NCBI GenBank assembly: GCA_002773855.1 | Contig: PEZY01000012.1 | Location: 233,565-297,564, forward strand | Direction: 5' to 3' | Length of the DNA stretch: 64,000 nucleotides | Origin: Candidatus Buchananbacteria bacterium CG10_big_fil_rev_8_21_14_0_10_33_19 | GTDB lineage: Bacteria > Patescibacteriota > Patescibacteriia > 2-01-FULL-39-33 | Part shown: positions 1,955-30,745 of the stretch, piece by piece | Numbering within the stretch: position 1 is the first letter of the stretch | Layout: each line of letters opens with the position of its first letter | Made by a program: the position numbers and the translations under genes | The notes under the pieces: model-generated | Told to the model about the DNA's origin: nothing | What the model saw: the letters and a program-made list of their open reading frames with translations, nothing else | Database searches by the model: none

Positions 1955-3897
1955 TGATTGAAAGTTATAATATTATTAACCAGCAGGCTAAATCAATGAA
2001 CAGCCTAAGATTTAAGGTGATAGCAACTATCATCACTGTTTTTTTGATTGGTCTAGTGATTGTTTTTACGCCATTTGTATTTCATGGTATTAGAGCGGCT
2101 AGTTATGTGACAGCGTCCATTTCTGAGGCTAAAATTTTATTAGCCAATGTCGACAATAAAGATTGGCAACAAGCCGTAGAATCATCAGAATCAATTGAGG
2201 CTAATTTGTCAAAACTAAATACTGAGATTTCTGGCTTAGGCTTAATTAGCAAGCTACCAAAATTAAAAAATGATTTTAAGGTTGGCCAGCAGTTTATTGT
2301 AGTGGCTCAGTCGTTGGTTGGTGGTTATGCTGAAACATTTAAAATTTTTGCCACTATCGAACAAGCAGGTTTAACTGTTGATCCTAATATTTTATTAGAA
2401 AATAAAGAGGTGATTAATTTGATTAGTCAAAATAAAACTCAATTAGCTTTAGCCAAAAAACAATTAGAAATAGCTAATGCTAGTTTTTCGGAAATTGATA
2501 CTAATGATTTTTCAGGATTTTTTGCTAGTTATCTGATTCAGGCTCATGATGTGCTAGGTCAGGTGCTTGCCAGCACGAATATTGGCTTGCCAGTTATGGG
2601 TTTGTTACCAGACTTGTTGGGTTATAATGGCGAAAAGCATTATCTACTTATTCTTGAAAACAATATGGAACTGCGGCCAACTGGTGGCTTCATCGGATCA
2701 TACGGTATTATTACTGTCGAGTCTGGTAAGATAAAAAATCTAATTACCGATGATGTTTATAATTTGGATAAATTATCCGAGGGTAAATTATTAGAGTTAG
2801 CACCAGAGCCAATGCTAACATATAACAGACAAAAATATTGGTATATGCGTGATGCTAATTGGTATGCTGGCTGGCCAGATTCAGCTAATAAGATAGTAGA
2901 ATTTTTTCATATTGAAAGACAGAATGCTAATTTGCCTGATCAGCGAATTGATGGGGTGATTGCGATTACACCAGACTTTATTGCCAATCTTTTAGCTGTT
3001 TTAGGGCCTATTAATAGTCATGGTATTGTGTTTTCGGAGAATAATTTTGCGATGGATTTGGAAGAATTTGTGGAAGGTGGTTTTGAAGCTAAAAATATTC
3101 CTTATGATGAGCGCAAATCAATAATTGGTGACTTGTCTAAAATTTTAATTTCTAGAATAGAAAATACCACAGCGGAAAATTTTTCTAAATTATGGCTCGC
3201 TTTCAAAAAGAATATTGATGAAAAAAATATTTTAGTTTATATTTTTGATAATAAATTACAACAGTATTTTTCTGATCAGAATTGGGCCGGAGAAATTAGA
3301 CAAACTAATGGTGATTATTTGATGTTGATTGATAGTAATTTTGCTTCGCTCAAGACTGATGCGGTAATGGAACGATCTATTAAAAGAAGTTTAAGTTTAA
3401 ACGAGGCTGGTGATTTAATGGCGCATTTAGAAATTACTTACAAGCACAATGGTCAGTTTGTTAAGGATTTAATTACCAGATATCGAACTTATGCCAAGGT
3501 TTATGTACCAGCTGGTTCGTGGTTTGAAAGTGGATCAATTAAAGATGAAACTGGTGAGACGGTGCTTAATATGTCTAGTGATTTAACTTATGGCAATGAG
3601 TACAATAAAGCTTATGCCACTTACTTTGTAATTATTGAGCCAGGTAAATCAAAAACTGTAATTTTAAATTATAAATTGCCCAAAAATATTTTGGATCAAT
3701 ATAATCAAGGCACGTATAATTTGTTGGTTCAAAAGCAACCGGGCACCATTGGACATAAACTGGGAATTGATTTAAACTTGAGTAAAGAAATTTCGGCCTA
3801 TAAAGCGGCTATCTTACCCAATTATTATGGTAAAACGTCAATAGGCTGGGAGAGTGATTTGACTGTCGACAGGGAGTATAAAATTAAATTTAATTAG
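1954..3897 (+). CDS. Large membrane-anchored extracytoplasmic protein, possibly DUF4012-like, associated with the GT cluster
   Basis: Single N-terminal TM helix then a ~600-aa soluble domain. The start ATG overlaps the upstream stop (TAATG). The ORF track's longer start at 1915 overlaps the GT2 gene. Family assignment is from memory, not verified. Confidence 0.4.
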   Translation: MIESYNIINQQAKSMNSLRFKVIATIITVFLIGLVIVFTPFVFHGIRAASYVTASISEAKILLANVDNKDWQQAVESSESIEANLSKLNTEISGLGLISKLPKLKNDFKVGQQFIVVAQSLVGGYAETFKIFATIEQAGLTVDPNILLENKEVINLISQNKTQLALAKKQLEIANASFSEIDTNDFSGFFASYLIQAHDVLGQVLASTNIGLPVMGLLPDLLGYNGEKHYLLILENNMELRPTGGFIGSYGIITVESGKIKNLITDDVYNLDKLSEGKLLELAPEPMLTYNRQKYWYMRDANWYAGWPDSANKIVEFFHIERQNANLPDQRIDGVIAITPDFIANLLAVLGPINSHGIVFSENNFAMDLEEFVEGGFEAKNIPYDERKSIIGDLSKILISRIENTTAENFSKLWLAFKKNIDEKNILVYIFDNKLQQYFSDQNWAGEIRQTNGDYLMLIDSNFASLKTDAVMERSIKRSLSLNEAGDLMAHLEITYKHNGQFVKDLITRYRTYAKVYVPAGSWFESGSIKDETGETVLNMSSDLTYGNEYNKAYATYFVIIEPGKSKTVILNYKLPKNILDQYNQGTYNLLVQKQPGTIGHKLGIDLNLSKEISAYKAAILPNYYGKTSIGWESDLTVDREYKIKFN

Positions 3898-28864: not shown

Positions 28865-29410
28865 ATGTATTTATTAATCCTTTTAATTATTCTGATTATT
28901 ACCATTGTTACTTTGGTAATGATGTTGTCTATTGTTTGGGGGTTAATTGTAACTGGCGGCGTGCCTTTTATTTCGACTAATAAAAAAGATTTTCAGGCGA
29001 TACTAGAGGCGGTTAATTTAAAGCCCAGTGAAACTATTTATGATTTGGGTTGTGGTAAAGCTCATTTGTTAATTTATGCTAACAAGCATTTTAACAGTAA
29101 GGGGATTGGCTATGAGTTAACGCTGTGGCCATATTTGTGGGCAAAATTTAAAATTTATCTAACCAAAGCTAAAGTAAAAGTTTTTAGAACTAATTTTTTT
29201 GGCGCTAATTTGTCTGGAGCGGATGTGGTGTTTTGTTATTTGTTTCCTGAGGTGATGGCGAAATTAGAACCGAAGTTTGAAGCTGAGCTTAAAAGTGGTA
29301 GTCGGGTGGTGTCTTATGGATTTAGGTTACCTAATAAAAAAGTTAACAGGGAAGTGATAACCAATGATGATAATGTAGAGCTGGGAAAAATTTATGTTTA
29401 TGAATATTGA
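28865..29410 (+). CDS. Class I SAM-dependent methyltransferase
   Basis: YDLGCGKAHLL motif I. 181 aa with an N-terminal TM helix. Confidence 0.6.
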   Translation: MYLLILLIILIITIVTLVMMLSIVWGLIVTGGVPFISTNKKDFQAILEAVNLKPSETIYDLGCGKAHLLIYANKHFNSKGIGYELTLWPYLWAKFKIYLTKAKVKVFRTNFFGANLSGADVVFCYLFPEVMAKLEPKFEAELKSGSRVVSYGFRLPNKKVNREVITNDDNVELGKIYVYEY

Positions 29411-29448
29411 TTAAGTGTAAAATTTATTGTAGAGTGGTAATTAAATAT

Positions 29449-29573
29449 GGCCCTATCGTCTAACGGGTCGAGTGAAACGAGACGGGTGGCAATGAGCCAA
29501 GCGAAAAGCGCAGGCGAGATGCCGACGGAAGCGAGCGAGCGCAGCTTCTGGCGCCACCCTGGGGAGGACGTCG
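29449..29573 (+). other. Disrupted partial copy of the tRNA-Glu 5' region with a ~100-nt GC-rich insert
   Basis: 29449-29466 is identical to tRNA nt 1-18. 29565-29573 (aggacgtcg) matches tRNA nt 21-29. The ~62% GC segment between them (29467-29562) is atypical of this genome. Confidence 0.5.
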
Positions 29574-29600
29574 GTTGATTGGTTAAAATAAAATAAATAT

Positions 29601-29672
29601 GGCCCTATCGTCTAACGGTTAGGACGTCGCCTTCTCAAGGCAAAAATCGGGGTTCGATTCCCCGTGGGGCTA
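29601..29672 (+). tRNA. tRNA-Glu (anticodon CTC)
   Basis: Hand-folded cloverleaf: acceptor GGCCCTA/TGGGGCT (two G-U pairs), D-arm GTCTAACGGTTAGGAC, anticodon loop TTCTCAA, T-arm CGGGG-TTCGATT-CCCCG. 72 nt, no encoded CCA, one C-A mismatch in the anticodon stem. Confidence 0.75.
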
Positions 29673-29676
29673 CTAG

Positions 29677-29715
29677 TAAAACAAAAGAGCGAACATAAAG
29701 TTCGCTCTTTTGTTT
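29677..29715. terminator. Perfect 17-bp inverted repeat (bidirectional terminator) after the tRNA
   Basis: aaaacaaaagagcgaac-ataaa-gttcgctcttttgtttt. Confidence 0.7.
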
Positions 29716-29868
29716 TATAAATATCCACTGGGAATCAAACCAGTAGCGAGAGAGCAAGAAGTGAGCGGGAACGCTAACGCCGAAGCGAACGACAAATGAT
29801 GCGACGGCTAATAAAATAAAAAACCGTCTCTATGACACTTGGTAAGTTCATAAAAGACGGAATTAATA

Positions 29869-30381
29869 TTACGGTTTGATAATATTGACTGTATGAGGAA
29901 ATTTGAAAAAGTCTTGATCATTAGGCCAATCTTCAACTTTCATCTCTCCAGATTCCAGCATTTCCATTACAAAATATAATGACGGCAAATAAACGGCTAG
30001 AGCCAAGAAAAGAATGGTGGCTTGAATATGATTATCAATATTATGAGGAGAATACGAGTGGCCACGATCGTCAACTCCAATAGAACAATCATCGCCTTCA
30101 CATTGAAAGTAGGCCCCGCTTTGTAGCCAAATAATTTTGAGGTGTTGTCTGCTATTAGTTATATGAGGCATTGCTACTGATTTAATTTTTTCAAAGATCC
30201 TGACTCTAAATTTTTCGTTGCTAGAAATATGCGGATACCACTTTTGATAATAATTATCCTGCAAGCGTGCGGCGACTAGCCAACCTCTTTCCATTTTGCT
30301 GATAACTGGCAGGTAATCTTCAAATTTGTTAAAAGCATAATTATCAACTATGGCTCGTGATATTGGATTTTTTACCATCAC
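29869..30381 (-). CDS. Hypothetical protein
   Basis: 170 aa, Cys/His-containing. Downstream hairpin plus T-run terminator at ~29817-29860 on the minus strand. Confidence 0.4.
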   Translation of the reverse strand: MMVKNPISRAIVDNYAFNKFEDYLPVISKMERGWLVAARLQDNYYQKWYPHISSNEKFRVRIFEKIKSVAMPHITNSRQHLKIIWLQSGAYFQCEGDDCSIGVDDRGHSYSPHNIDNHIQATILFLALAVYLPSLYFVMEMLESGEMKVEDWPNDQDFFKFPHTVNIIKP

Positions 30382-30571
30382 TTGGTTCTCCTTTTTAAAA
30401 GTGCGAAGTGTTTATGTGTCATTTTAATTAATTGCCATTGTTTTGTCAATTGGGGTTTATTAAATGATCTCAAGCGAAAAATATCTAATTGATTCTATAT
30501 TGTTGGTAATCTCTGCTATAATAAAGAAATATATATTTAAATATATATTTAAATATTAATTTCCTAAAATC

Positions 30572-30745
30572 ATGGCTCGCAGAAAATTAGAAGATAAAAA
30601 TATCAGAAAAATAAATAAATTAGGTGTTAGCTACGCTGTTACAATTCCCATCGAAATCATGCGGGAGTTTAAATGGAAAGAAAAACAAAAAGTGGTAGTT
30701 AAAAAACGAGGTAATAGTCTAATTATTTCTGATTGGAAAAAGTAA
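30572..30745 (+). CDS. Small AbrB/MazE/SpoVT-like (swapped-hairpin) DNA-binding protein, 57 aa, not in the ORF track
   Basis: Translation MARRKLEDKNIRKINKLGVSYAVTIPIEIMREFKWKEKQKVVVKKRGNSLIISDWKK fits the G-x-VTIPxEIR-x-L-G-D-V-I pattern. Stop 1 nt before the rlmH ATG. Confidence 0.5.
   Translation: MARRKLEDKNIRKINKLGVSYAVTIPIEIMREFKWKEKQKVVVKKRGNSLIISDWKK

Follow-up and report, generated by a model that had tools for sequence, protein, structure and literature searches.

The rtT RNA of the E. coli tyrT operon (178-bp repeats, Rfam RF00391) is a small RNA released from a tRNA precursor, in which it follows the tRNA and contains copies of that tRNA's 3' end. In AT-rich bacterial genomes, the GC-IGR approach of the Breaker laboratory reportedly yields GC-rich intergenic candidates for structured RNAs. 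Archaeal bulge-helix-bulge (BHB) introns and split tRNAs depend on the splicing endonuclease, and both exons or halves are needed for a functional tRNA. Non-canonical BHB introns of archaeal tRNAs have been described (e.g. PMC3241643). The group I introns found in tRNA genes of Patescibacteria are self-splicing, reside in the anticodon loop (e.g. at position 35/36), and are flanked by full exons (PMC13011429). Among the genomic islands catalogued by Islander, 159 of 3919 have displaced a 5' fragment of the target tRNA gene, and the crossovers are located at the anticodon loop, the T-loop, or the T/acceptor junction (PMC4383910).

The locus described here lies in a 64,000-nucleotide stretch of DNA that was analysed as a whole (the window), with a mean GC content of 33.5% (0.335, sd 0.07). 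A single tRNA gene, encoding tRNA-Glu(CTC), was identified in the window by ARAGORN and Rfam, and this tRNA was the only Rfam match at the gathering threshold. As stated in the preliminary description, the first 18 nt of the gene recur 152 nt upstream: the 18-mer GGCCCTATCGTCTAACGG (tRNA nt 1–18) is present exactly at 29449–29466 and 29601–29618 and is found nowhere else in the 64 kb with up to two mismatches (0 expected from 100 shuffles). The direct repeat proved to be longer than first noted, covering 28 nt with 27 matches (the second copy at 29591–29618) and including 10 nt of the 5' flank. The GC-rich interruption, the 9-nt match, and the truncation that had also been described were all confirmed. 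The insert (29467–29564) is 98 nt long, has a GC content of 65%, lies between the 28-nt and 9-nt repeats, and is the GC maximum among the 80-nt stretches of the window (0.69). It is followed by AGGACGTCG, which is identical to tRNA nt 21–29 at 29621–29629 in 9 of 9 positions, so that the insertion point in the partial copy is between tRNA nt 18 and 21, i.e. in the D-loop. The partial copy stops at tRNA nt 29, no 3' exon follows it, and an uninterrupted tRNA gene is located downstream after a gap of 27 nt. The features of the locus, including the conserved core of the insert (element E), are listed in Table 1. The Rfam alignment of the intact tRNA contains a C.A mismatch in the anticodon stem, and the acceptor stems of tRNA-Glu(CTC) vary strongly among close relatives (GGCCCTA, GGTCCCA, and GCCGCCA).

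Table 1. Features of the tRNA-Glu(CTC) locus (positions are those of the window)
Feature	Position	Strand	Basis
Ancestral 5' flank and putative promoter region of tRNA-Glu, now located before the partial copy	29411–29448	+	Flank alignment (promoter function presumed)
Direct-repeat copy 1: 10 nt of flank and tRNA nt 1–18 (acceptor 5' strand, D-stem 5' strand, D-loop to GG)	29439–29466	+	27/28 repeat
Element E, conserved GC-rich structured core (~96 nt), followed by GG at 29563–29564	29467–29562	+	Covariance model, 113 bits
P1 hairpin, GUCGAGU-GAA-ACGAGAC	29467–29483	+	Perfect 7-bp hairpin in L025 (GUCGCCC-GAA-GGGCGAC)
P2 5' strand, GGGUGGC, pairing with 29553–29559	29484–29490	+	Five-copy alignment
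P5 hairpin: stem 29524–29532/29544–29552, conserved 11-nt loop GAGCGAGCGCA at 29533–29543	29524–29552	+	Five-copy alignment
P2 3' strand, GCCACCC, abutting P5	29553–29559	+	Covariance model, five-copy alignment
Copy of tRNA nt 21–29 (D-stem 3' strand, start of anticodon stem)	29565–29573	+	9/9 repeat of 29621–29629
AT-rich spacer S, GTTGATTGGTTAAAATAAAATAAATAT; possible second promoter or RNase P leader (function presumed)	29574–29600	+	Similar spacers at the same place in L012 and L025
Intact tRNA-Glu(CTC); CCA not encoded	29601–29673	+	ARAGORN; Rfam RF00005, 55.5 bits
Terminator-like hairpin, AAAAGAGCGAAC-ATAAA-GTTCGCTCTTTT, with T-rich tail	29683–29717	+	Sequence reading; inverted repeat I1
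Degenerate second copy of E, downstream type, beginning CCACTGGGAATCAAACC	29725–29792	+	Inverted repeat I2; 65-nt local alignment to the L015 element, z = 6.6

The locus resembles each of the systems mentioned above in part. Going by its general description, rtT appears to be the closest functional analogue, as a small RNA in a tRNA transcription unit that is accompanied by partial tRNA copies; unlike rtT, E of the window lies upstream of the tRNA within a copy of its 5' end, has no Rfam match, and belongs to another phylum. Like the GC-IGR candidates, E is a GC-rich island in AT-rich intergenic DNA that exhibits covariation, and Rfam 15 contains no matching family. An insertion at a non-standard position, including the D-arm, and tRNA pieces in very small genomes are shared with the archaeal BHB introns and split tRNAs, but here the intact tRNA is encoded apart, and the fragment, having no 3' half of its own, cannot be assembled into a full cloverleaf. 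The group I introns of Patescibacteria are, like E, structured RNAs that interrupt tRNA sequences in the same phylum; E, however, is only 96–98 nt long (the introns are ~200 nt or more), interrupts the D-loop of a truncated tRNA copy, and is not recognised by any intron model. The intron-like insertion that had been proposed as one possible explanation is thus not tenable, the copy having no 3' exon and the tRNA itself being uninterrupted. With the Islander islands, the locus shares a direct-repeat partial tRNA next to a regenerated intact copy, with the side and orientation expected of an island, and a position at a recombination hot spot, and the ends of the fragments at nt 29–32 agree with the anticodon crossovers of these islands. 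Unlike in the islands, there is no island body and no integrase among the neighbouring genes of any locus, the repeats are only 152 nt apart, the fragment is non-contiguous (98 nt between nt 18 and 21), and the D-loop is not a known crossover sublocation. Unlike MITE or REP sequences, E shows no multi-copy dispersal, the window containing one canonical and one degenerate copy at the same locus. In the literature, we found no report of a structured-RNA motif nested in a tRNA 5' fragment.

The gene order DnaK, DUF3467, DnaJ, methyltransferase, and tRNA-Glu is conserved, so that orthologous loci could be gathered. The gene upstream of the element in the window encodes a class I methyltransferase (Pfam and PHROGs), and no recombinase was found among the neighbours. 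By this methyltransferase, the organism falls within the Patescibacteria (Ca. Falkowbacteria according to the source, with Ca. Buchananbacteria as relatives). The same layout, namely flank, tRNA nt 1–18/19, E, nt 21–29/32, AT-rich spacer, and intact tRNA, recurs at three places (loci L012 and L025, and L011 with its truncated contig). L012 belongs to a different species (75% methyltransferase identity) and contains E upstream of tRNA-Glu(CTC) in the order 5' tRNA-like piece, E, copy of nt 20–29, AT-rich spacer, and intact tRNA, with an additional GC-rich hairpin at nt 12/13. In L025, from a Patescibacteria MAG (same contig as L027), E resides inside a 5' copy of tRNA-Thr(GGT) upstream of the intact gene, which heads the tRNA cluster Thr-Tyr-Thr-Trp. 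The arms of this copy are Thr-specific (nt 1–19, 19/19; nt 21–32, 12/12), the AT-rich spacer is similar, and the locus has no genes in common with that of the window. In L011 (81% methyltransferase identity), the contig breaks off within the upstream copy; assemblers and tRNA finders ignore such sites or break at them, and such elements are therefore probably under-reported. E homologues were also found downstream of tRNA-Glu in L015 and L068, on the tRNA strand and past a terminator.

Three orthologous loci (L013, L032, and L036) contain a plain tRNA with no trace of E or of a partial copy, and the upstream partial copy is absent from L029 and L068. The comparison of orthologous loci that had been suggested as a check on a local artefact therefore gave a mixed picture, with a single plain tRNA in L013, L032, and L036 and the same architecture in L012, L011, and L025. 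The presence and absence of E among relatives points to its gain and loss, and since E is polymorphic among orthologous loci, an artefact does not account for this distribution. Upstream 5' copies of tRNA-Glu with other, shorter GC-rich inserts are present in L033 (3054–3146) and L069 (1921–1993). In L033 and L012 (3084–3139), the D-stem 5' strand is followed by related hairpins, GCCCGCC...GGGCGGG and CCTGCCTCG...CGAGGCGGG, respectively, and the 35-nt insert of L069 may be a heavily deleted E. Downstream of tRNA-Glu in L036, an E-less relative, the segment GTTGATTGGAAAAAATAAAA (3283–3303) matches the window spacer (29574–29593) at 18 of 20 positions; this could be a chance match in AT-rich DNA or a trace of the cassette.

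A covariance model trained on the three upstream-type copies (window, L012, and L025) and searched over 120 kb of collected sequence detected exactly five copies of E, i.e. the three training copies and the downstream-type copies of L015 (E = 1e-5) and L068 (E = 1.4e-4), with no further copy elsewhere in the window. Purifying selection acts on E, which is better conserved than the adjoining tRNA: between the window and L012, E is identical at 85 of 96 positions (88.5%) and the tRNA at 56 of 73 (77%), while coding DNA is ~71% identical and four-fold sites are saturated (23–29%). The E copies of the window and of the tRNA-Thr locus share 81 of 98 positions. Because the genomes of Patescibacteria are minimal and this non-coding GC-rich element is nevertheless kept better than the adjoining tRNA, E likely does something.

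Helices P2 and P5 are maintained by compensatory changes. In the five copies, 97% of the cells of the closing helix P2 are paired (the L015 version being GGGUUGG/CCAACCC). P5 exhibits compensatory double changes in 6 of 11 pairs, with 96% of cells paired; its stem is wholly different in L068 (AGCCAAUCC/GGAUUGGCU), with the loop (consensus GAGCKRGCGYA) being kept. Over all helices, 91.4% of cells are paired (79.4 ± 1.8 in shuffles), and 11 pairs are changed on both sides (2.9 ± 1.5 in shuffles; 0–3 in slid controls), values reached in 0 of 500 shuffles, although these counts come from five sequences and from an alignment that was fitted to the model and is thus biased toward the structure. P1 shows double changes in 4 of 7 pairs, yet no more than 72% of its cells pair, and the downstream-type copies lack it. 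Support for P1 and for the central region (P3/P4) is poor, and both vary between the upstream and downstream types. The data favour the tRNA-sense strand: six G.U cells fit this strand only, and the predicted fold is more stable in the sense than in the antisense direction in all five copies (sense z from -1.6 to -4.9). E of the window alone folds with z = -2.3, and the window sequence with flanks folds no better than shuffles (z = -0.7).

The Rfam/Infernal scan that had been proposed for identifying the insert gave no match, as nothing in Rfam 15 overlapped E with cmscan at E ≤ 10 (29300–29900 of the window, and likewise the L025 and L029 copies). Several known elements were considered and rejected, with their defining motifs absent by eye and in the Rfam scan: k-turn/k-junction, group II domain V, SRP, tmRNA, hammerhead, and twister, as well as IS200/IS605 ends, omega-RNA, IS110 bridge RNA, and integron attC. 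A helix between the D-loop and the spacer was also checked by eye as a conserved feature and was found not to be conserved. In 185,579 species genomes, a strict pattern scan, which would miss divergent copies of E, gave true matches in two only, at one locus each (L025 and L026, the latter being the L012 locus), and one further match was due to chance in GC-rich coding DNA. A pattern scan of metagenomes returned the L025 contig again and one chance match, also in GC-rich coding DNA. No true match to E was found in the viral, phage, and plasmid collections (five IMG/VR pattern scans, INPHARED blastn, and PLSDB blastn); what the viral scans did return was due to chance in GC-rich coding DNA. E appears to be a rare conserved structured RNA element that is supported by covariation, has no known family, and is more than a decayed duplicate.

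A 43-aa ORF (29447–29578) spans E and has been called as a gene in two metagenome annotations. In a search against 5.8 billion proteins, however, its only match was itself, and the reading frame is not kept across the E copies, whose lengths vary by 2–15 nt; because of these indels and the lack of a homologue, E is considered not to be coding, and a small protein gene was rejected. The 458-nt intergenic region is 100% identical in nine independent assemblies (JGI, ENA, and Logan), and a tenth differs by 1 nt, which falls in the tRNA. An assembly artefact is excluded by this agreement across ten independent assemblies. Apart from the ORF and its gene calls, little would suggest a small protein gene, a neutral decaying tRNA pseudogene, or an artefact, readings that are contradicted by the agreement of the assemblies, by the frame breaks, and by the conservation of E well above that of neutral sites, and that we regard as scarcely credible.

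The acceptor, D-loop, and anticodon-stem sequences of tRNA-Glu differ between the window and L012, and in each case the arms that flank E match the tRNA of the same genome (18/18 and 9/9 in the window; 11/12, 6/6, and 9/10 in L012). The duplicated D-stem strands can be paired around E in the window (GUCU...AGGAC), L012 (GUCC...GGAC), and L025 (GCUC...GAGC); in the window, 29565–29573 and 29458–29461 can re-form the D-stem. The idea of a decayed tRNA copy, as put forward in the preliminary description, does not fit these data, because the copy is truncated, yet its remainder is identical to the resident tRNA, and the copies of other species track their own tRNA. We know of no mechanism that preserves the identity of arms of 18 and 9 nt with the resident tRNA. 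Tracts of 18 and 9 nt that are split by non-homologous DNA seem unlikely to be matched by gene conversion. Two options remain: either the arms are re-created upon each insertion, as by a target-copying mobile cassette, or their matching is selected (mimicry).

The first option corresponds to a selfish non-autonomous mobile cassette, consisting of E and the spacer, that would be mobilised in trans and enter the D-loop region of tRNA genes. The target would be regenerated by a promoter and a new tRNA 5' end supplied by the cassette, and the structure would serve mobility (as RNA or ssDNA) rather than the host. The occurrence of E at various tRNAs and positions with context-specific arms, its patchy distribution among close relatives, the decayed second copy in the window, and the similarity of the spacers at the Glu and Thr loci are consistent with such a cassette, as is the nature of the tRNA-Glu locus as a recombination hot spot (a displaced 3' half in L068 and a small island in the window). 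However, no integrase, transposase, reverse transcriptase, or endonuclease gene adjoins any of the five copies of E, no representative genome contains more than one canonical copy, the strict pattern occurs in so few of the species genomes, and the IMG/VR, phage, and plasmid collections contain no match. The only possible terminal inverted repeats are the 7-bp strands of P2, and the junctions (..GG/GTCG...CCCYGG..) in the window, L012, and L025 show no consistent target-site duplication. Moreover, we know of no element that rebuilds two separate target-derived arms. A selfish cassette is judged unlikely, although it deserves to be weighed. A broader version, in which E and the spacer represent a new mobile RNA cassette of tRNA genes that contains no protein gene, including a variant in which mimicry of the tRNA arms controls tRNA maturation, appears rather improbable; such a cassette would insert at the D-loop, a sublocation at which attachment is not known, would capture the resident promoter for its own expression, and would restore its target with a substitute promoter and a newly copied tRNA 5' end, which would account for the constant match of the arms to the resident tRNA. 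If E is mobile, it would represent an unrecognised way of targeting and repairing tRNA genes through a D-loop site with no adjacent recombinase, and would bear on the origin of tRNA genes in pieces in ultra-small genomes.

Alternatively, the locus may be the scar of an integrase-type island. The upstream fragment would be a displaced 5' fragment produced by a crossover near the anticodon stem, the island would have supplied the spacer and the new 5' half of the tRNA gene before its body was deleted, and E would be an unrelated later insertion or residual island DNA. Upstream 5' fragments are a known minority among islands with anticodon-centred crossovers, the copies stop at nt 29–32 in both the Glu and Thr loci, and the upstream partial copies of L033 and L069 hold different inserts, all of which are compatible with such a scar. 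However, E is located inside the fragment itself (nt 18/21) rather than in the gap before the regenerated gene, this gap is only 27 nt long, and no integrase is present nearby. Purifying selection on E, exceeding that on the tRNA, is not expected of residual island DNA, and the same internal position of E at two tRNAs would require two independent, identical secondary events. We give an island scar as an account of the whole locus little credence; the remnant integration site that had been considered earlier is possible for the 5' fragment only and fails to explain E inside it.

Our preferred reading, which is tentative but may well be correct, is that E is an undescribed structured RNA that is encoded in the tRNA leader, made under the control of the tRNA promoter, and freed by RNase P cleavage. 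Of the three options offered by the preliminary description, a structured small RNA co-transcribed with the tRNA is best supported, given the conservation, covariation, and strand preference, with transcription being presumed; the architecture of the locus and its recurrence also argue for this reading. In the window and L012, the sequence preceding the partial copy aligns with that immediately preceding the intact tRNA in L013, L029, and L032, which are E-less; the ancestral promoter region has thus come to lie before the partial copy and E. The ancestral tRNA promoter would thus read the duplicate and E first, followed by the 27-nt AU-rich spacer and the intact tRNA, and the predicted primary transcript would comprise the partial copy, E, nt 21–29, the spacer, and the tRNA. 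Because RNase P is established in removing tRNA leaders, its cut at +1 of the intact tRNA would be expected to free a leader RNA of ~150 nt. In this RNA, the 7-bp helix P2 of E would close the element, and the duplicated D-stem would act as a clamp around it. E and the spacer would form a relocatable cassette that is found at tRNA-Glu and tRNA-Thr, upstream or downstream, with arms that equal the resident tRNA in the three upstream copies. A sigma-70 scan gave no promoter match at 29411–29448 or in the spacer, and the same scan tool missed even the obvious terminator at 29683–29717, which makes it unreliable here. Inspection of 29449–29600 by eye revealed no GC-rich hairpin followed by a T-run. 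Because E is absent from several close relatives, an essential host RNA, which would not be lost this easily, is disfavoured. If expressed, E would be a new family among the few small RNAs embedded in tRNA operons, and tRNA promoters and RNase P would be involved in making another RNA.

The leader could also act in cis, with the duplicated acceptor and D-arm strands competing with the 5' half of the tRNA for its 3' half and E, as a sensor or a domain that binds a protein, deciding this competition and thereby controlling tRNA maturation. The arms match the resident tRNA in three lineages despite differing tRNAs, and, for the window, L012, L025, and L069, the 3' strand of the tRNA is paired with the upstream acceptor strand in the predicted minimum-energy fold of the precursor. 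The gain in pairing energy (-6.3, -2.9, and -6.7 kcal/mol), however, is within ~1 sd of that of shuffled leaders; because it is no better than that of shuffled leaders, the idea of a leader built to trap the tRNA is unsupported and was rejected. In addition, the downstream-type copies (L015 and L068) cannot work in this manner, and no match implies a ligand or a protein. A cis-acting leader is regarded as improbable, and the released leader RNA remains the preferred reading, with the selfish cassette, the island scar, and the cis-acting leader as its competitors.

The degenerate second copy of E is located past the tRNA terminator of the window and can form its own hairpin (ACTGG...CCAGT). It contains neither P5 nor the P2 3' strand and was missed by the covariance model. 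Its first segment, CCACTGGGAATCAAACC, is complementary to the tRNA T-arm (29651–29667) at 15 of 17 positions, forming inverted repeat I2. The downstream-type copies of L015, L068, and L029 start in common with GGGAATCGAAC, of which 11–13 nt are complementary to a T-arm, namely that of a different tRNA-Glu allele type in L015 and L068 and that of the resident tRNA otherwise. Judging from its sequence, this segment could represent a T-arm in antisense orientation or what is left of a D-arm after the loss of 3 nt. The degenerate copy is part of a region of ~1 kb between the tRNA and rlmH in the window (29720–30745) that is missing from L012 and looks like a small island at the 3' side of the tRNA. 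This region also contains a 170-aa ORF (29869–30381, minus strand), with no family match in Pfam or PHROGs, and a 57-aa MazE/AbrB-like ORF (30572–30745).

In L068, a GC-rich palindromic repeat-like sequence (CGTCATTGCGAGGGACGAAGCAATC...; 2885–2960), which the window does not contain, is present in the spacer between the methyltransferase gene and the tRNA. The same locus carries, 27 nt downstream of its resident GGTCCC-type tRNA-Glu, the displaced 3' half (3140–3172; anticodon-stem 3' strand to discriminator) of a GCCGCC-type tRNA-Glu, which suggests that the whole tRNA allele has been replaced at this locus. In L029, a long divergent E-like stretch (3215–3400), missed by the covariance model, is located downstream of the tRNA, starting with CAGGGAATCGAAC and ending with ATTCCCTGTGGCGG (tRNA nt 58–72). 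It contains a GGGCA/UGCCC closing helix followed by AGGACA (tRNA nt 21–26) and a hairpin with a GGAA tetraloop, and may be what remains of a tRNA-like gene of full length that had E inserted in its D-loop.
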